Shown here piece after piece: positions 512 to 12,796 of a DNA stretch of 23,542 bases (positions are counted from its first letter, which is position 1; each line of letters begins with the position of its first letter). The position numbers were made by a program, and so were the translations under genes. Where the stretch lies: IMG/VR virus record IMGVR_UViG_2802429615_000001, positions 1 to 23,542 of that record. The stretch is one strand, 5' to 3'. The notes beneath the pieces were generated by a model that was not told where the DNA came from, ran no database searches, and saw only the letters and a list, made by a program, of their open reading frames with translations. The stretch comes from a virus.

Positions 512-1705
512 CTACCGACGCACCTCCTCACGCGCCACGAGTCCCTGCTCAACGCCGGTGTCGACGACGCTCGTCGACGCGATCGGGTCGAGCAGCGCCT
601 CTAGGTCGGTGGGGATCTCCGCGGTCACCCTCTCGGGGATCCACACCTCCAGCGACTCACGCCCGCGCTCGAGCTCGACATCGACGGCGAAGACGTCGCC
701 CGCGTTCGTCCCGGCGACGGCCTCGAACTCGACCTGTGCGGCGACACGTGCCTGCCCGATGTGAGTCAGGTCGACGTCGGCCGGCTGCCAGTCCGTGTCG
801 AGGTCGCCGTCGGCGTAGGAGGGGAGCGAGACCGTGGACCAGCTGTCGGCGCCGGCGTCGTACGTCTCGGCCTCGAGGGCGGCCGTGGCGTCGGCGTTGG
901 TCGGCTCGTCGATCGTCACCCGCAACAGCCCGTTCTCGATGACGACGGCGCCGGCGAAGTCGTGGTCGCGAGCGTACACGCCCTGCCACTGCCGCACCCG
1001 TCCGTCTGAGCCCTCGATGTACTGACCGTCGCGGCCGAGGGTGTCGTACACCCGGACGTCGACCGGCGCCTCTTCGTCGTAGGCGACCCGGTAGATGTAG
1101 ATCGGGGTGTCGATCGCCTCGGCGTTTACATCGTACACATCGATAGAGCCGTGTGGTGTGTCGACCGTGTCGATCGGTGCCGTCGACGCACGCTGCGTAG
1201 GCTGCGACAGCGTGTCAACCACGCGGACTGCGGTGGCTGCCGTCGGGATACCGACCAGGGCGTCGGTGTCATTCCCGAACTCGTGTCCGGGGCTGGGCTG
1301 TGTTACCTCAGTCTCGACCGCTCGGAGGTGAGACTTTCTGGTGCCCTTTTTCGTCAGCGTAAGATCCCACTCGTACACGCGCTTGCCGACGGCGTGCGGT
1401 GGGCCGACGTCGGCGCTTTCGACCTCGTAGTAGCCACTATCGAGATCGGAGGCGCCACCGGTTCCGAACAGCGGGAGCGCACCCATCGACGCGTCGGCGA
1501 GCTCTTCAAGCTCTCCGGCGAGCAGCGGCGCCCAGTCGCCGGCGGCGTAACTCCCGGTAAGTGAGAGGTCGGCTGCCTCCGAGGAGATTGCCTCGACGAG
1601 GGCGTCGCCATCAAGAACACCCTGCTCGGAAAGTACGGTGCCGAGTTCGTCGCGGTTCTGGTCCGTCGTTGCCTCTGGAAGAGGCTGCTTGTACAGCGTA
1701 AGCAT
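512..1705 (-). CDS. Putative distal tail / tail-tip protein (397 aa)
   Basis: Acidic, beta-rich ORF downstream of the TMP-like gene, tightly packed with its neighbours. Function from position only. Confidence 0.6.
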   Translation of the reverse strand: MLTLYKQPLPEATTDQNRDELGTVLSEQGVLDGDALVEAISSEAADLSLTGSYAAGDWAPLLAGELEELADASMGALPLFGTGGASDLDSGYYEVESADVGPPHAVGKRVYEWDLTLTKKGTRKSHLRAVETEVTQPSPGHEFGNDTDALVGIPTAATAVRVVDTLSQPTQRASTAPIDTVDTPHGSIDVYDVNAEAIDTPIYIYRVAYDEEAPVDVRVYDTLGRDGQYIEGSDGRVRQWQGVYARDHDFAGAVVIENGLLRVTIDEPTNADATAALEAETYDAGADSWSTVSLPSYADGDLDTDWQPADVDLTHIGQARVAAQVEFEAVAGTNAGDVFAVDVELERGRESLEVWIPERVTAEIPTDLEALLDPIASTSVVDTGVEQGLVAREEVRR

Positions 1706-1707
1706 CG

Positions 1708-2388
1708 TCAGTAGTCGGGGACGAGGTCTCCCAGGGCGTCGATGATGTCGTCGATCGCGTCGTCGAGCTTGGGGAGCTTGCTCGTCCGGATGAGCGTGAT
1801 CGACACCTCTGCCCGGGCGGGCTCGTCACCCGCCTTCTGGAGGCGCGCGTCTTGGACGACGACAGGGACCGGTCGGCCGAACACGCCAGCTGAGTCGGCG
1901 TGAGTCCCGTCCGACCACTCGCCGCGGTAGAGGCGGGCGGGCGTCGTCGAGTCGATGCGGTTCTGCTTGAGCCATCCCCCGAGGATGTCCCGCTTCGTCA
2001 CCGTCGCACAGCCCGTCGCGTCGAGCACGCTGGCGTCAGCAGGATCGTTCGGGTCGGTCGAGCCGTCACCCCACTGCTCGTCAGGATCGTCGACGCCGGT
2101 CTTCCCGGTGATCGTCCACATGTCCTCTCCAGCGGTGCCGTCGAGGTGGTAGCCGGCGCGTCGGTCGGCGTTCTCGGAGACATCGATGACGTCGCCGAGT
2201 TCGTCGGAGAGTCCGCCGACCTGTCGGTAGAGCTCGCTCAGGTACTGGCCGCGGTTGCCCGCGATGTGTTTGTGTTCGAGCTCCTCGGTGTCTTCGAGAT
2301 CTTCGCGGAGTACGAAGACGCCAGTGGCGCCGGCGTACGGGCCGTTATTGCCGTCGATCTCAAGGACTGTGCGGTCGCTTAGGGTCAT
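1708..2388 (-). CDS. Putative distal tail (Dit-position) protein (226 aa)
   Basis: First minus-strand gene after the TMP-like gene; acidic composition. Function from synteny only. Confidence 0.55.
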   Translation of the reverse strand: MTLSDRTVLEIDGNNGPYAGATGVFVLREDLEDTEELEHKHIAGNRGQYLSELYRQVGGLSDELGDVIDVSENADRRAGYHLDGTAGEDMWTITGKTGVDDPDEQWGDGSTDPNDPADASVLDATGCATVTKRDILGGWLKQNRIDSTTPARLYRGEWSDGTHADSAGVFGRPVPVVVQDARLQKAGDEPARAEVSITLIRTSKLPKLDDAIDDIIDALGDLVPDY

Positions 2389-2395
2389 GTGTTGG

Positions 2396-2410
2396 GGGAA
2401 GCATTATGCG
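2396..2410 (+). promoter_or_regulatory. Possible BRE/TATA-like element for a leaderless rhomboid transcript
   Basis: GGGAAGCATTATG lies about 25-30 nt upstream of ATG 2433, the spacing expected for haloarchaeal leaderless mRNAs. Weak match to consensus. Confidence 0.35.
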
Positions 2411-2432
2411 GGTGTGGTCGGAAATCCGATAC

Positions 2433-3068
2433 ATGAGCGTTGACCTGGATCTTGAACAGCCTGAGAAAACGGAGGAGGCTGGGTCCGGGGCTTCGACGAT
2501 CGTTACGCGGCTGCTCGCTGGGCCAGGAGTGTCGCTCCTCCTGATGGCGATCGTCAGCCTCGCGACATGGACGGGAATTCAGGCCAACAACGCTGATCCG
2601 TTCATCCTTCAATCCCCGTTGACCGAGGACTGGTGGCAGCTGCCTCTGTCGGTATTTGCGCACAGCGGGATGCCGCACCTGTCCGCGAACGCGACGATGA
2701 TCGCGATCTTTGGATCGGTGGCTGCGATCTCGGCGAGTGTACTCCGGTATCACATCTTTTTCATCGTGTCTGGGATGCTCGCCGGAGCCGCACACGTTCT
2801 CGCAACTGCTGCGCTCGGCACCCCCAGTGGTGGCCTCGGTGCGAGTGGCACCGCGATGGCTCTCATGGCGTACGTACTCGTCTCGAACGACGTCTCCTCT
2901 TTTGTGTTCGACCGCGTCTCTCGGACCGTTACAATCGGGCTGGTGCTTGCGCTCGCAGTTGGCCTCTCGTTGACATCGGCGGGCGTCCAGGTCGGGAATG
3001 TCGCCCACCTGTCTGGTGCGCTTATCGGTGGGTTCGCCGGGTACTTCCACATCCTCCGGCCTCGATAG
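2433..3068 (+). CDS. Rhomboid-family intramembrane serine protease (about 211 aa; alternative start 2406)
   Basis: About 6 hydrophobic segments, HSGMPHLSAN (HxxxxHxxxN), GASG catalytic Ser (codon 2844-2846) and AHLSG catalytic His (codon 3006-3008). Opposite strand to the operon, with more A/T-ending codons. Confidence 0.9.
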   Translation: MSVDLDLEQPEKTEEAGSGASTIVTRLLAGPGVSLLLMAIVSLATWTGIQANNADPFILQSPLTEDWWQLPLSVFAHSGMPHLSANATMIAIFGSVAAISASVLRYHIFFIVSGMLAGAAHVLATAALGTPSGGLGASGTAMALMAYVLVSNDVSSFVFDRVSRTVTIGLVLALAVGLSLTSAGVQVGNVAHLSGALIGGFAGYFHILRPR

Positions 3069-3070
3069 CA

Positions 3071-4216
3071 TCAACGGATACCGTCTCGGAGTGATTCGAA
3101 CTCGTCGCGAAGCTTGTCGAGCTCATCTTCGAGATCGTCGATGTCCTGCTCGACGCCACGCTCGATCGCGTTGATGACATCCTTCTTGAGTCGGTCCAGT
3201 TGGCGAGGGTCGACGTCGACATCGTACGTCGACGAGAGCGTGATATCGACGTTTGGAGGTCCAGATCCCGTACCGGATGAGTTGCTCTGAGTCCCGGTCG
3301 GGTCGCCCGGATCGCGACCGAGCGTGAGGCCGTCGTCGCCCCCGGCCTGAATGCCACCAGGGCCGATAGTAATCCCGTTCTCGCCGCCGAACTGGATGCC
3401 ACCCGTGCCGCCTGAACCGCTGCCTGAGGATCCTCCACTATCGCCGCCCCGGCCACGCGTGTCGACGGTGACCGTGATCGGGCCGACGTCCTCGACTGAC
3501 AGCGGAGATGGGTCCTCGACCGACAGCGGCGACGGGTCCTCAACCGCGAGGGGTCCTACGTCCTCAACCGGAAGCGGCGACGGGTCCTCGACAGGGACCG
3601 TGTCAGGCGTGTTGAGGCTTGGAAGATCGGGCAGTGGTAGTGTCGGAAGGTCTGGAATTCGGAACTTCGGCCCGGTTAAAGGATCGAACCCTCCGTCTGG
3701 ACCTTCAACTTGTATCGGGATCCACCCGGGACGCTCAACCGAGAGCGTGTCAGGTTCAACACCGACTGTCGACCCACTGATCTCGTTCGCGATGATCGAT
3801 CCGGCGGCGTTCCCGATCGCACTTCCGGCCGCCTCTGTCGCCAGTCCCGTCGCAGCGTCGGCAGCCGTCCCCGCAGCCTCACTGGCGAGGTCACCACCGA
3901 CGCCGAAGACCTCGGCGAGCATCCCGCCGCCTCCACCCCCTCCGGTCATCTCGAGGCCGCGGATGGCTTCGAGGATGTCCTCGATGTTGCTGTTGTTCTG
4001 GCGAGCCCACCTGAACTCGCGACGTCGACGGCGCCGCTCGCGACTCGACCGCCCACCGTCCGACCGCATCTCAGGAGGACGTCCGCTGCCGGCACCAGCG
4101 CTGACGCCGACCGAAACATCGCTGAGTCTGTCCTCGACGTCGGCACGTAGCTGCCGGAGGGCACGCTCCTCGGCCACCATTTCGACGGCGGCACTTGTCG
4201 AGAAGTCCTCACTCAC
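3071..4216 (-). CDS. Tape-measure-like protein, unusually short (381 aa)
   Basis: Follows the tail chaperone pair (GTGA overlap). Ala/Gly-rich helical stretch, Pro-rich repeat region and a coiled-coil C-terminus (IDDLEDELDKLRDEFESL). Confidence 0.6.
   Translation of the reverse strand: MSEDFSTSAAVEMVAEERALRQLRADVEDRLSDVSVGVSAGAGSGRPPEMRSDGGRSSRERRRRRREFRWARQNNSNIEDILEAIRGLEMTGGGGGGGMLAEVFGVGGDLASEAAGTAADAATGLATEAAGSAIGNAAGSIIANEISGSTVGVEPDTLSVERPGWIPIQVEGPDGGFDPLTGPKFRIPDLPTLPLPDLPSLNTPDTVPVEDPSPLPVEDVGPLAVEDPSPLSVEDPSPLSVEDVGPITVTVDTRGRGGDSGGSSGSGSGGTGGIQFGGENGITIGPGGIQAGGDDGLTLGRDPGDPTGTQSNSSGTGSGPPNVDITLSSTYDVDVDPRQLDRLKKDVINAIERGVEQDIDDLEDELDKLRDEFESLRDGIR
3473..3592 (-). repeat. Five tandem 24-bp (8-aa) repeats in the TMP-like gene
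   Basis: VEDPSPLP-VEDVGPLA-VEDPSPLS-VEDPSPLS-VEDVGPIT. Confidence 0.9.
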
Positions 4217-4422
4217 AGGAGGTCACCCAGATTCGTGTCGGCGTCGTCGACGATCGCGAGTAACTCCAAGTCGCGGAGCGGGTACTCGCGTACCTCGCGC
4301 GGGTCGTGGCCAGCAGCCATCGCGACGCCGACGAGGTAGTCACGCATCACGTCTCCGTCGACGTCTCCGCTCGCTTCGCCGCGAGCGAGGTCGCGTAACT
4401 CCCGTCGCCGTTCAGGTTTCCC
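4213..4422 (-). CDS. Tail assembly chaperone C-terminal extension (gpT-like), -1 frame; alternatively a 44-aa ORF from ATG 4347
   Basis: The -1 frame is open from the GGGAAAC heptamer to TGA 4213 and encodes ...MRDYLVGVAMAAGHDPREVREYPLRDLELL..., positioned like lambda gpT. Confidence 0.7.
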   Translation of the reverse strand, partial: GKPERRRELRDLARGEASGDVDGDVMRDYLVGVAMAAGHDPREVREYPLRDLELLAIVDDADTNLGDLL

Positions 4423-4883
4423 ACGGTGCTCACCTCGTCCGTACGGTCCTGAACCCAGCGCCCCACAGCGATCGGTACCGCTGGCGAATCGACTGTTGCG
4501 ACCGTGTCTTCGACCGCGTCTATCGACACATCCGGATACGCGTGCCCGTCGTGCTCGAGGTACGGAGCCTCGACAGTGCCGATCGCGATCTGCCAGAGCC
4601 GACGTTCTGGTCCCGAACCGGCGTGCTCGTCGAGACGCGCGTCGTCGCCGAAGGAGAGTGCCCGGATGACGATCGAGTCCGTGTCCCAGTTCTCGCGAGC
4701 CCACTCAACGGCCCGCCGGTGAACGTCGAGTCGCGACGCCCGGTCGTCGAGCGTCTCGTACAGATCGGTCTCCGGATCCATCTCGGCGAGCTGGTCAGTC
4801 AGGTCACCGATCTCCGAGACGATGCGCTCGTGTTCGGTGTCGAGGTCGATGCGCTCGGAACCGGCCGGAAGGTCTTCGCCCAC
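4347..4883 (-). CDS. Tail assembly chaperone (gpG-like, about 178 aa from GTG 4883)
   Basis: Lies between tail tube and TMP genes; acidic with a short coiled-coil; slippery site near its 3' end. Confidence 0.7.
   Translation of the reverse strand: MGEDLPAGSERIDLDTEHERIVSEIGDLTDQLAEMDPETDLYETLDDRASRLDVHRRAVEWARENWDTDSIVIRALSFGDDARLDEHAGSGPERRLWQIAIGTVEAPYLEHDGHAYPDVSIDAVEDTVATVDSPAVPIAVGRWVQDRTDEVSTVGNLNGDGSYATSLAAKRAETSTET
4416..4422 (-). other. -1 programmed frameshift heptamer G GGA AAC
   Basis: X XXY YYZ pattern in the correct phase of the chaperone ORF (GTG GGA AAC = V-G-N). Confidence 0.75.
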
Positions 4884-4884
4884 G

Positions 4885-5784
4885 CTAGACCACCTCAACG
4901 TCTGCAACGTGGTAATCGATCGGCTCGGTCAGGTTGGTATCGGCGGTGATGAGATCAGCCCAGTTGTAGGTGTTCGGCTGGAGTCCCGACAGAGCGTACT
5001 CGATCGAGTCGCCTTGGCCGTTCTCGAACGAGAGCGAGCCGTCGACCGCGCCGACGATCTCGATGTTGCCGCCTGATGTACTGCCGTACGAGAGCGTGTT
5101 CTGGTCTTTCTCTGTATAGATGGCGTCAGTTGACAGAGATGGCTCAATGGCTCCAGTGACTGCGTCGTACGGTTTCCGGTCCTGACCACGGCGCAGGCTG
5201 GCGAGGTTCGACAGCGACAGCGACGCCGACTGGAGCAGCGCCTGCGCGGTCCCGTCGACGGTGAGGCCTGTCCCGTGGTAGGTGTAGATGTCGTCGACGC
5301 TCGGCTTTTGAATCGTGCCCGGCGCCGTGATGTCGTCCGGCTCGTCGCCGTACAGCATCGTCAGCTCGACACGGATGTTCTCGCCGCGGTTGTACTCGAT
5401 CGTCGCGTCGATCACGACCGTGCCGACCGGCGTCCGTGCGTCGGTCGAACCGTCCGGGAGGTCGACACCGAAGTACCACGTCGCCGACGGGACAGACATG
5501 AACGAGTTTGGCAGCGCTGTCCCGCCGTCTGCGAAGACGAGCTCATGGAAGTTGTCGTCGGTCAGGTCGAACCCGACGCCGACAGCACCCTCCCACTCGC
5601 CCTCACGAGAGCCGGCAGGCGTCGGGTCGTCTGGGTGCCGCGCCCGCTGGAGTGCCTGCTCGATCGATAGGTCTGTGAGGGAGACGTTCAGTCCTACCTG
5701 AGTCCACGCCGGATCCGCGGCCGGGCCGTCACCGTAACTGGGTTCGACCGTGTACGCGGCCGTTGCCGCGCCGGCGCCGGTCAT
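4885..5784 (-). CDS. Major tail tube protein (299 aa)
   Basis: Size, T/S/G/D-rich beta composition, strong RBS and position between tail terminator and chaperone. Confidence 0.75.
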   Translation of the reverse strand: MTGAGAATAAYTVEPSYGDGPAADPAWTQVGLNVSLTDLSIEQALQRARHPDDPTPAGSREGEWEGAVGVGFDLTDDNFHELVFADGGTALPNSFMSVPSATWYFGVDLPDGSTDARTPVGTVVIDATIEYNRGENIRVELTMLYGDEPDDITAPGTIQKPSVDDIYTYHGTGLTVDGTAQALLQSASLSLSNLASLRRGQDRKPYDAVTGAIEPSLSTDAIYTEKDQNTLSYGSTSGGNIEIVGAVDGSLSFENGQGDSIEYALSGLQPNTYNWADLITADTNLTEPIDYHVADVEVV

Positions 5785-6385: not shown

Positions 6386-6846
6386 GAGAGCCTCCGCCGG
6401 AAGCTGTTCAGAGAGTCTCTAAGGAACCGACCCTCCGGAAGCCCGGTGACCTCGACCTTCGGGAGAAACACCCGCCAGCCGTCGCCCTCGCGCTCGTACT
6501 GGTCGCGAACCCATTGAGGCGGGTCGTGCCGGCGTTCCCAGATAAACGAGAGGACGTCGGCTTGGTCGGCCTCAACAACGTGGTCCGCAGTGCCAGTCTC
6601 GAAGAGATACGCCGGGTCTGGCAACTCGACGACGATCCGAACGCTCCGGGATGTCCGTTCGACACGGTAGCGCGTCGCCTGGACGATCGCACGGACGTCG
6701 TAGTCGTGCCGGTTCCCGTAGGCGGCGACACGGTCCTTGATGTCTCCAGCAAGCCGGGGGGCGACTTTGCGCTCACACCGCCGCTCGATGACATCAAGGA
6801 GGCCCTCACGGGCTGCGTCCTCGAAGCCGCTGTCGAGCGTGGTCAT
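6382..6846 (-). CDS. HK97 gp10-like tail-completion protein (154 aa from ATG 6846)
   Basis: YLFETGTADHVV and LPEGRFLRDSL resemble the gp10-family (F/Y)EYGT and PRPFLRPA motifs. ATGA overlaps at both ends; the longer 220-aa track ORF start is probably spurious. Confidence 0.6.
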   Translation of the reverse strand: MTTLDSGFEDAAREGLLDVIERRCERKVAPRLAGDIKDRVAAYGNRHDYDVRAIVQATRYRVERTSRSVRIVVELPDPAYLFETGTADHVVEADQADVLSFIWERRHDPPQWVRDQYEREGDGWRVFLPKVEVTGLPEGRFLRDSLNSFRRRLS

Positions 6847-7100
6847 TGGCCCTCGCTGGAGCCGCCGCGGAGCTCCCGGAACGCCCGGACGTTCTCGGGG
6901 CCGATGACGTACACGACCGTGCCGCCCCACGCGAGGATGAGCGCGCTGAGCAACGCGGCGCCGACGTCGACGCCGACGGTGAGCGCCCAGGCCGGGAAGC
7001 CGAGCCCGTAGACGAGCACCCAGATGGTCGACAGCCAGCGCCACCGGTAGTCGGTCTCGGTGGTGACCGCGCCGTCGTCTGGCTCAGTAGAGTCTGTCAT
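6843..7100 (-). CDS. Small two-TM membrane protein (85 aa from ATG 7100), holin-like candidate
   Basis: Two hydrophobic segments (WLSTIWVLVYGLGFPAWALTV; GAALLSALILAWGGTVVYVIG), short basic C-terminus, GGAG upstream. Confidence 0.6.
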   Translation of the reverse strand: MTDSTEPDDGAVTTETDYRWRWLSTIWVLVYGLGFPAWALTVGVDVGAALLSALILAWGGTVVYVIGPENVRAFRELRGGSSEGQ

Positions 7101-10933: not shown

Positions 10934-12796
10934 TTAGATCTCGCTCGGGACGTCGTCCGGCACCTCACCGGGATCGGGCGTCGGGCCCTCCGGTAGCCGC
11001 TCGTGGTTGTTGGTTATCTCAAGGTAGCCGTACTCCAGCCGGATGTTCGCGTAGTGGTACGACCCCGCCGACGGCGCGTTGACGAGGTCGTTCCACACCG
11101 TCACCGGGACGTCGACGTACACGTACAGCGAGTTCTGCCCGTCCGGCCGCTTGAACGAGAGGTACAGCTCGCGCTCGCCGAAGTCGTAGAGCCCCTCGTC
11201 GAGGTTCGAGGAGTTGAACGTCGTCTGCTCGATCGGGTCCTTGTCGACGTCGATGTCGACGCTCGCCCGCTCGCCGATCTTGTTCTCCTGTGGCGGGGCC
11301 GCCTTCGACCGCATGGCCTCGGCCTCGTCGCCGTCAGTGGCGTTGGCGTCGAACTGCGCCTCGAACTCGGAGAGCGTCATCTCGCCTCGCTCGTCGTCGA
11401 ACGGCTCCAGCCCGAGCTCTTCGCGCGCTTCGTTGACGGTTCCGACGCCGGCGAGGCGCATCGCCCGGACGCGCTGTTCTGCCATCCGCGCATCCTCTTG
11501 GGGCTGGTCGGCGCCGTGGAGCTCGAAGTCGATCGTCCAGTCGTCGACGCCGAGCGCCTGCTGGTGGAGGATGGTGTAGAGCCGCGACTCGAACTTCGCC
11601 TGCTCCGGCGCGATGACGTCGGTCGCGAACTCCCGGACCTGCTCCTTGGAGTTGGCCCGGTTTGACGTCGATGTCACGTTGATGAGGATCGGCGGCACCT
11701 CGTGGACTTTCGCGATCTCGTGCTCGTTGCGCTCGCGGAACGCCTGGAACTCCATGTCGAGGTCCTCCCGCGAGCCGACAGGGACGAGTTCGATCTCGAC
11801 ATCGGAGTCGTCCAGTTCGTTCTTCTTGAACTCCTCCACCTCAAGCAGCGCGGTCCGATAGCGACTACCCTTGAGGTTGTCCATCAACTCGCGGAGCTCC
11901 TGCTTGGAGTCCTCGGTGAGAGTCCCGCCAGTCACCTTGATGACGTAGAACGGGACGCCGAGGTTGTCGAAGATGTCGTGGTTCCACTCCTTCGCGGCCT
12001 GATCGGCGCCCATCGTCTGCATCGCGGCGACCCAGTCAGGGACACCGTAGTAGAGCGAGAGCGGCGACGGATTCGGAATGAAGATGAGCTCGTTCGCCGG
12101 TCCGTTCGGGAGGTCGCCGGCGTCGCTCGCGACCTCACCCGTCTCCTTGTCGACGAACGTCGGGTCGTCGCCGTACCGGTCGCCGGCCTCGCCGAAGTAG
12201 CGCCGCCGACCCTGTCGCACTTGGACGTAGCCGTGCCCGCTCTCGATGATGTCGTCGGCGTCTTCGCGCTCCTCGACGACGGTCTTCCGGACGCGAACCG
12301 TGGCCGCCGGCACGTGGGCGAGCCCGACCGGCGTGCCGTCGCCCTCGACGAGGATCTCCAGCGACGTCCACCCGATGCCGTGGTAGTCCTGCCGGCCGAG
12401 CTCCAGCACCTCCTCGGGAGTCGACATCGCCGTGCCCTCCGGGCCGATCTGCCATCGCGAGTCGGAGCCGTACCAGAAGTCGCGAACGCTCTGGTACGCC
12501 TCGCCATCCTCGTTGGGCGAGTCCGCGCTCGGGTGTGGGACGATGTTGAACCCGTACCCCGCCTCGTACCGCGACTTCTTGCGGAGACACGCGTGGTGCG
12601 TCTCGTTGAGCTCTTGGAACGCCGCCAGCGTCTCGGGGTTGTACGGCGGCTGGATGCCCCGCCCGACGTCGGTGGCGATGTGGCGCTCGTCCAGCTGCGT
12701 CGTCTCCTCAGCCTTGGCCATCGACGACTGGTTCCCCAGCGTGTCGACGGTCAGGTCGATCTCATCGCCAGCGTCGTCGGTGGTGTCGTCAGTCAT
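10934..12796 (-). CDS. Portal protein with C-terminal KTSC domain (620 aa)
   Basis: Follows terL. Portal motifs GLAHVPAATVRVR, YYGVPDW, HEIAKVHEVPPILI and TVNEAREELGLEP; C-terminal SSNLDEGLYD...YVDVPVTVWNDLVNAPSAGSYHYANIR matches the KTSC pattern. Confidence 0.9.
   Translation of the reverse strand: MTDDTTDDAGDEIDLTVDTLGNQSSMAKAEETTQLDERHIATDVGRGIQPPYNPETLAAFQELNETHHACLRKKSRYEAGYGFNIVPHPSADSPNEDGEAYQSVRDFWYGSDSRWQIGPEGTAMSTPEEVLELGRQDYHGIGWTSLEILVEGDGTPVGLAHVPAATVRVRKTVVEEREDADDIIESGHGYVQVRQGRRRYFGEAGDRYGDDPTFVDKETGEVASDAGDLPNGPANELIFIPNPSPLSLYYGVPDWVAAMQTMGADQAAKEWNHDIFDNLGVPFYVIKVTGGTLTEDSKQELRELMDNLKGSRYRTALLEVEEFKKNELDDSDVEIELVPVGSREDLDMEFQAFRERNEHEIAKVHEVPPILINVTSTSNRANSKEQVREFATDVIAPEQAKFESRLYTILHQQALGVDDWTIDFELHGADQPQEDARMAEQRVRAMRLAGVGTVNEAREELGLEPFDDERGEMTLSEFEAQFDANATDGDEAEAMRSKAAPPQENKIGERASVDIDVDKDPIEQTTFNSSNLDEGLYDFGERELYLSFKRPDGQNSLYVYVDVPVTVWNDLVNAPSAGSYHYANIRLEYGYLEITNNHERLPEGPTPDPGEVPDDVPSEI

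Follow-up and report, generated by a model that had tools for sequence, protein, structure and literature searches.

A putative rhomboid protease gene opposed to the tail genes of a Graaviviridae-like haloarchaeal provirus, with relatives at the same variable tail slot

Genomic setting of the rhomboid gene

The DNA analyzed here is record IMGVR_UViG_2802429615_000001 of IMG/VR, positions 1 to 23,542. This whole stretch of 23,542 nucleotides (nt) is called the window, and the gene under study is a plus-strand gene in it that is predicted to encode a short intramembrane protease of the rhomboid family. IMG/VR classes the record as a provirus with an estimated completeness of 57%, and its GC content is about 65%. 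Read from right to left, the minus strand encodes an MCM helicase, an exonuclease, the large terminase and the portal protein, followed by an XkdF-type protease, an HK97-fold capsid protein, connector proteins, the tail tube protein and other tail proteins. The Halorubrum viruses CGphi46 and BJ1 match the window at about 82% at the DNA level, over separate blocks. The window reads as a Graaviviridae-like provirus of a haloarchaeon, related to these two viruses. Both belong to the family Graaviviridae, for which Liu et al. (2021) inferred a temperate lifestyle, on the grounds that every member encodes an integrase and that proviruses have been recorded (PMC8651126).

With a coding filter based on GC content at third codon positions (GC3), the rhomboid gene was the sole convincing plus-strand gene from position 1 to about 22.6 kb. 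All genes next to it are encoded on the minus strand and it is thus antisense to the tail module, as an earlier reading of this DNA from the letters alone (the sequence-only reading) had claimed. The gene and its transmembrane (TM) motifs are as follows; aa stands for amino acids.

2433..3068, plus strand: rhomboid-family intramembrane serine protease (predicted), short form, 211 aa; PF01694 at 62 bits, phrog_16931 at E 1e-59, profile alignment to GlpG 2NR9
2661..2690, plus strand: TM2 motif H86-x4-H91-x3-N95; invariant in 29 family members and aligned with the TM2 HxxxN of GlpG
2838..2849, plus strand: GASG motif in TM4 with the predicted catalytic Ser147 (AGT, 2844-2846); invariant in the 29 and aligned with GLSG of 2NR9
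3003..3017, plus strand: AHLSG motif in TM6 with the predicted catalytic His201 (CAC, 3006-3008); H201 and G204 invariant in the 29, aligned with AHISG of 2NR9

Rhomboid family membership and active site

The match to the Pfam Rhomboid family exceeds the cut-off of 22.6 bits by a wide span (E 9.5e-17; a second scoring gave 63.3 bits), and the matching PHROGs family carries the label 'unknown function'. Six hydrophobic segments were counted in the protein (residues 36-52, 97-113, 117-133, 143-159, 174-190 and 201-217). A profile built from the alignment of 29 family members spans the TM1-TM6 core of Haemophilus influenzae GlpG (2NR9, residues 11-182, E 2e-9). The claims of a complete catalytic serine and histidine and of about six TM segments, both made from the sequence alone, hold in this alignment. 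Judged by these residues, the active site is intact and the enzyme is predicted to be catalytically competent.

Other markers of the family are less regular. The WR motif of the L1 loop is missing, and the family reads E-D-W-W-Q (W77 invariant, Q78 in at least 90%) at the place where GlpG has W-R; the motif is regarded as a widespread feature without a catalytic role, and rhomboid membership should still hold. Equivalog cut-offs of NCBIfam were not reached for either rhombosortase TIGR03902 (34 versus 84 bits) or GlpG TIGR04239 (24 versus 250 bits). Pairwise ratios of nonsynonymous to synonymous substitution (dN/dS) range from 0.09 to 0.33, with dS near saturation, and show that the gene is under purifying selection.

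A shift in codon use had also been claimed for the gene. Its GC3 of 0.73 does lie below that of most structural genes (0.81-0.93), but the adjoining gene at the tape-measure position is lower again at 0.70, so that the rhomboid does not stand alone in this respect. On the opposite strand, an open reading frame (ORF) of 229 aa (2385-3074, minus strand) was rejected as a shadow ORF, being Arg-rich with a GC3 of 0.62 and no family match.

Distribution of the tail-slot rhomboid

The same gene is present in the cultured virus CGphi46, where HALG_00049, annotated as 'hypothetical protein', is 58% identical to the window rhomboid, lies in the same slot and is antisense to its neighbours. Gene, strand and slot are shared by another IMG/VR locus (L003) and by three metagenome loci (L004-L006). 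The arrangement recurs on two closed circular 57-kb 'plasmids' of Natrinema, unnamed5 of strain sp. DC36 (53% identity) and unnamed2 of N. halophilum YPL8 (36%). Halorubrum and Natrinema viruses alike retain the slot, the strand and the promoter block. Both Natrinema replicons (L087, NZ_CP084477.1; L092, NZ_CP084881.1) encode a full structural module of a tailed virus, with capsid, XkdF protease, tail tube and fibronectin-III tail proteins, and are probably episomal proviruses that were filed as plasmids.

The close clade of the rhomboid comprises about 30 clusters at 90% identity. One member was found in the NCBI assembly of Halorubrum sp. Ea1, on a 28-kb contig that also encodes a homologue of the 397-aa tail protein of the window. 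An exhaustive profile search covered 1.84 billion representatives. It returned a single sequence (346 bits) for the close clade, 26 representatives at E <= 1e-30, and about 60 short-form representatives with scores between about 190 and 95 bits. A single-sequence scan of IMG/VR with the window rhomboid gave no match. At E <= 1, the query P0001 retrieved only CGphi46 and three weak matches in bacterial phages, and a typical cellular haloarchaeal rhomboid found no match by tblastn in 50,697 phage records. The gene itself is already in GenBank (CGphi46) and in PHROGs under the labels given above; what the present analysis adds is its predicted identity as a rhomboid, by which both annotations are corrected.

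Start codon and promoter block

The reading frame is open from an ATG at 2406 (2406-3068, plus strand), from which a membrane protein of 220 aa would be translated. Most homologues in the 29-member alignment start with MSVDL, which corresponds to the ATG at 2433 in the window. Moreover, the ATG at 2406 lies within a TATA-like box, and the gene therefore most likely spans 2433-3068. The true start is probably ATG 2433. The upstream feature, with BRE standing for the transcription factor B recognition element, is the following.

2393..2407, plus strand: BRE/TATA-like promoter block (predicted); GGGGGAA at 2394-2400 and ATTAT at 2403-2407, at -40..-26 from ATG 2433

The sequence-only reading had noted a promoter-like element of the gene's own, and comparison makes this claim stronger than it was stated, as a block conserved in position was found in seven rhomboid loci. 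It follows the pattern T-R-GGGGAA-N3-ATT(A/T)T and lies at -40..-26, with an identical spacer of 25 nt, in six of the seven (the window, L004, L005, L006 and the Natrinema replicons L087 and L092); in CGphi46 the block is 2 nt closer to the ATG. The sequence that separates block and ATG varies from locus to locus. An A/T patch (AAAT, 2422-2425) is found at -11..-8 from ATG 2433, and a patch near -10 is also present in the two Natrinema loci. In haloarchaeal promoters of leaderless mRNAs, the BRE is joined by a TATA box at about -27 and by an A/T element at about -10. By analogy, we read the block as a predicted haloarchaeal promoter, from which a leaderless mRNA with its 5' end at about 2433 is probably transcribed.

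In relatives without the rhomboid, the block was not found upstream of the distal-tail gene, where a different conserved element is located; for this reason the block is assigned to the rhomboid cassette. BJ1-type loci and CGphi46 have a conserved GC-rich inverted-repeat-like element (type CGCGCCGGTCAGCGCG), followed by a TTTCACAC-like motif, immediately upstream of the distal-tail gene (L101:4940-5000, L098, L102, L093 and L001:5883-5940). This element is missing in the window; within the tail operon it may serve as an internal regulator or terminator.

A variable cargo slot with a moron-like unit

The junction that holds the rhomboid, between the gene at the tape-measure position and the distal-tail gene, had been described as normally contiguous. 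This is not the case in the relatives. A survey of the junction, as proposed from the sequence alone, found the rhomboid in some close relatives and other cargo in others. BJ1, L098 and L102 encode here, on the late strand, a protein of 93-107 aa whose two hydrophobic helices are accompanied by a highly charged tail at the C-terminus. L097, whose distal-tail protein is 82% identical to that of the window and the closest seen, has a 78-aa ORF with three TM segments and a HicA toxin gene in place of the rhomboid. A provirus of Halorubrum sp. Atlit-26R carries a 135-aa ORF with two TM segments and a small acidic ORF, and a Halorussus provirus carries an unrelated antisense ORF of 163 aa. In BJ1, L097, L093 and L096 the slot is taken by different cargo. 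The junction is thus a cargo hot-spot in these viruses.

The rhomboid unit has several features of a moron, namely its own predicted promoter, presence or absence among syntenic relatives and a differing composition, without a terminator of its own. The term moron-type, applied to the gene by the sequence-only reading, is borne out as far as architecture is concerned by the promoter, the opposite strand, the lower GC3 and the presence or absence in close relatives. A moron-like architecture of the accessory cassette is supported by these observations.

Two of the alternative occupants may be described further. The proteins of 93-107 aa (L084:6445-6732, which is BJ1 gp63; L098:4634-4957; L102:4680-4961) have no family match, and with their holin-like topology they are candidate lysis or exclusion proteins of archaeal siphoviruses. 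In L097 the slot genes are located at L097:3854-4090 and L097:4473-4727 (the 78-aa ORF with three TM segments; HicA, PF07927, E 1.6e-12).

Origin and relation to cellular rhomboids

Phylogenies, constructed as quick trees, compared the viral proteins with other haloarchaeal rhomboids, as had been suggested from the sequence alone. The main tail-slot clade (33 rows) is supported at 97%. Short forms borne on replicons in non-viral gene contexts fall outside it; these come from pHl5678-1 of Haloferax larsenii, pHBOR02 of Halogeometricum borinquense, megaplasmids of Haladaptatus and the 35-kb pHG4 of Hfx. gibbonsii. The whole short-form subfamily (178-211 aa) is set apart from the cellular rhomboids of about 310 aa with 100% support; the latter were drawn from hypersaline metagenomes, share 30-38% identity over the core and group apart, also at 100%. 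The copy from Natrinema halophilum sits on a long branch and was placed with the tail-slot clade in one tree (87%) and with the replicon-borne group in another (80%).

A near-identical copy of a host gene brought in by an assembly chimera would have undone the sequence-only reading. This is not what was found, as even the closest rhomboids outside viruses reach no more than 36-41% identity to the window protein. A chimera is further rejected by the distance to the cellular rhomboids and by their surroundings, since none of 77 such loci had homologues of the structural genes of the window. A fresh insertion was rejected as well. Relatives share slot, strand and promoter block, and the gene belongs to an old virus-associated lineage that Halorubrum and Natrinema viruses have kept at a single slot.

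Among non-viral relatives, the short-form rhomboid on the Haloferax larsenii megaplasmid is the nearest to the viral clade, and a halocin C8-like gene (L090:8501-9433) was observed at a distance of about 2 kb from it.

Proposed role of the rhomboid

We propose that the rhomboid cassette, transcribed against the late tail operon, is an autonomous accessory unit in a temperate lineage of haloarchaeal siphoviruses. Its product would insert into the host cytoplasmic membrane and would cleave a TM segment in a membrane protein of the host or of an incoming virus. The cell envelope would thereby be altered to the benefit of the resident virus, most likely by superinfection exclusion or by inactivation of a receptor or entry factor, and the rhomboid would take no part in virion assembly. 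The parts of this proposal differ in strength. The residues, relatives and genetic organization described above make it very probable that the gene is an active viral rhomboid cassette. A function in exclusion or envelope remodelling is advanced by analogy and tentatively, at somewhat short of an even chance. It seems doubtful that the viral protease serves as a membrane weapon, which from the provirus or early in infection would cut, in its TM segment, a receptor or entry factor, a membrane-inserting ejection protein from an incoming virus or a membrane-bound defence effector of the host.

The analogies come from two systems. HK97 gp15 is a membrane-protein moron for superinfection exclusion, located in the tail operon beside the tape-measure gene; its expression from the prophage blocks the entry of DNA, and homologues of it exist in cells (PMC3594210). 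It is the closest functional analogue that we could document. In Haloferax volcanii, deletion of the rhomboid RhoII (HVO_0727) changes an N-glycan of the S-layer as well as adhesion and motility, with no more than putative substrates of the enzyme so far (PMC9263693). The effect of a Haloferax rhomboid on S-layer glycoprotein and motility, cited in the sequence-only reading, is correct for RhoII. The traits affected are surface features that viruses could use.

Several observations weigh against an exclusion or envelope function. We know of no exclusion phenotype for CGphi46 or for any provirus that carries the gene, and no PADLOC defence model matched. An old gene that is fixed, not sporadic, in its lineage would also suit a core role in the lytic cycle. 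In BJ1-type viruses the slot is occupied by a holin-like protein on the sense (late) strand, which points to a late or egress function of the slot. No oligo-T terminator was found in 3069-3200, within 130 nt downstream of the rhomboid, and the unit is therefore not a textbook moron. Finally, no substrate signal was detected: the 381-aa neighbour is without a clean TM segment, and BJ1, a virus that lacks the rhomboid, shares the small protein with two TM segments encoded at 6846-7100.

The BJ1-type cargo bears most directly on a role in egress, in which a rhomboid acting late would cut an envelope anchor, such as that of the S-layer or another surface protein, or activate a viral holin-like protein and so aid progeny release. 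The holin-like proteins at the slot in BJ1, L098 and L102 are encoded on the late strand, CGphi46 has no annotated lysis gene and to our knowledge none is established in these viruses, and several small membrane proteins are encoded by the virus. The rhomboid, however, has its own promoter block and opposes the late operon, so that late read-through would make RNA antisense to it. Moreover, HicA and the ORF with three TM segments replace it in the closest relative L097, and it therefore cannot be an essential lysis gene; the gp63-type cargo and the rhomboid are not homologous to each other either. We regard a role in egress as unlikely. Maturation of a membrane-inserted viral protein for morphogenesis or genome delivery, for example the protein at the tape-measure position or a small membrane protein, would agree with the position of the rhomboid beside the tape-measure-position gene in every locus, and CGphi46 offers two single-pass candidates, HALG_00019 and HALG_00042. 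Yet BJ1 and L097 have homologous tail proteins and no rhomboid. As a substrate, the Gly-rich 381-aa neighbour was dropped for want of a clean hydrophobic TM segment at the threshold used. The protein at 6846-7100 is present in BJ1 without a rhomboid, hence there is no co-occurrence signal and this pairing was rejected too. Such processing appears very unlikely.

Cargo directed against host defence, or serving host fitness, would cleave membrane-anchored defence effectors or aid the lysogen in membrane-protein quality control, glycosylation and motility, or halocin handling. Sister short forms are carried by megaplasmids and plasmids of haloarchaea amid non-viral genes, which points to a cellular role for the subfamily; the rhomboid near the halocin C8-like gene is one of them, and the slot also accepts the HicA toxin gene, a typical accessory cargo. 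Against this stand the viral loci, which have no conserved partner gene, and the negative PADLOC result, and we consider a role of this kind quite unlikely. The GC3 below that of most neighbours and the 229-aa shadow ORF could be taken as signs of a decaying or neutral passenger, or of an artefact of annotation or assembly. This is hardly credible in view of the catalytic residues invariant in 29 sequences, the low dN/dS, synteny in eight independent loci including a cultured virus and closed plasmids, and an antisense ORF that has no coding signature.

Comparison with known systems

The window rhomboid shares with GlpG of H. influenzae and E. coli (MEROPS S54, PDB 2NR9) the six-TM core, the GxSG serine in TM4, the AHxxG histidine in TM6 and the HxxxN in TM2. 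It differs from GlpG in being distant in sequence, in having no extra cytoplasmic domain and W-W-Q instead of W-R in the L1 loop, and in being virus-encoded. HALG_00049 of CGphi46 (phrog_16931) is the same gene in a cultured and sequenced virus, with the same slot, strand and promoter block. HK97 gp15 resembles it as a membrane-protein gene with its own promoter within a tail operon, next to the tape-measure gene and with cellular homologues; gp15, however, is a small non-enzymatic protein of the bacterial inner membrane, whereas the gene described here is predicted to encode an intramembrane protease on the opposite strand of an archaeal virus. The replicon-borne rhomboids belong to the same short subfamily (36-41% identity to the window protein) and are distinguished by their non-viral gene contexts and by their position outside the main tail-slot clade. 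RhoII is likewise a haloarchaeal rhomboid; the contrast with it is drawn from the typical cellular rhomboids of about 310 aa.

Full-text literature searches for a described rhomboid of archaeal viruses or phages retrieved nothing relevant; the sequence-only reading likewise named no described viral function of this kind. Neither the main comparative paper on archaeal tailed viruses (PMC8651126) nor the HRTV-DL1 paper in which CGphi46 is drawn mentions a rhomboid. The feature is real: a virus carries a gene of a known enzyme family, equipped with its own predicted promoter, in a biological role that has not been described before.

Few natural substrates of prokaryotic rhomboids are known, and for Haloferax the targets named are only putative (PMC9263693); the ways in which archaeal tailed viruses shut out rivals or exit their host are essentially unexplored. 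A small viral rhomboid kept at one tail slot across host families offers a compact experimental handle on both questions. Since the gene is present in the cultured CGphi46, in the Halorubrum sp. Ea1 assembly and on closed Natrinema 'plasmids', comparisons of wild type with a Ser-to-Ala mutant are feasible. If the protease were a membrane weapon, it would represent the first proteolytic mechanism of superinfection exclusion or anti-defence and the first assigned function of a viral rhomboid, and would lead directly to one of the natural substrates of archaeal rhomboids.

Neighbouring tail genes

The genes that surround the rhomboid are listed below in order of position; AF2 stands for AlphaFold2 and pLDDT for its per-residue confidence score.

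512..1705, minus strand: second distal-tail protein, 397 aa, with a tube-fold domain at the N-terminus (residues 1-122) and beta-sandwich domains after it; AF2 model, pLDDT 83.6
1708..2388, minus strand: distal-tail protein of 226 aa with a predicted tail-tube fold; AF2 model, pLDDT 74, Foldseek and VIA-align
3071..4216, minus strand: 381-aa Gly/Pro-rich protein at the tape-measure position; homologue of BJ1 gp62 (37% identity, E 7e-41), phrog_30850
4213..4907, minus strand: probable pair of tail assembly chaperones, overlapping ORFs 4347-4907 and 4213-4704; from ORFs and GC3
4885..5784, minus strand: tail tube protein; phrog_18409 'minor tail protein' at E 2e-111, and a Natrinema plasmid counterpart by position annotated by PGAP as 'phage tail tube protein'

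The rhomboid is tightly packed between its neighbours. Its stop codon and that of the convergent 381-aa gene are 2 nt apart, and 44 nt separate its start from the divergent start of the 226-aa gene. The sequence-only reading had placed it between tape-measure and distal-tail genes. The second half of this statement agrees with the modelled fold of the 226-aa protein, while the tape measure is a candidate by gene position and order alone. Nearly all matches of the 226-aa model by Foldseek and VIA-align are baseplate tube-initiator or Dit proteins (Z up to 9.3), among them the Dit proteins of p2, SPP1, T5 and 80alpha, lambda gpM and the tail of HFTV1. The model of the 397-aa protein reaches Z scores up to 10.3 in VIA-align with baseplate proteins of Mu and Milano and with Dit proteins; Foldseek gave no clear match and ESM Atlas was uninformative, and its tube fold is visible by VIA-align only. 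Its homologue in Humcor1 directly follows the annotated tape measure. According to the models, two successive distal-tail proteins of the tube fold are encoded in the window.

The 381-aa protein showed no similarity to the annotated tape measure of Humcor1 and no match in Pfam, NCBIfam or ESM Atlas. Its sequence is atypical for a tape measure, with long Gly-rich stretches, proline repeats of the VEDPSPL type and helix-prone (coiled-coil-like) sequence at the ends only. As a rule of thumb, a tape measure corresponds to about 0.15 nm per residue. At this ratio the length of 381 aa would be roughly compatible with the particle size of BJ1, which is about 127 nm overall (PMC2194725).

Two further genes of the structural module were recorded. 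Among the head-tail connector genes, a small ORF of 85 aa (6846-7100, minus strand) encodes two TM segments with a GC3 of 0.92 and has homologues in L004 (76%) and in BJ1 (gp57, 69%). The portal protein (10934-12796, minus strand) carries a C-terminal KTSC domain (PF13619, E 7.6e-13) at residues 528-589.

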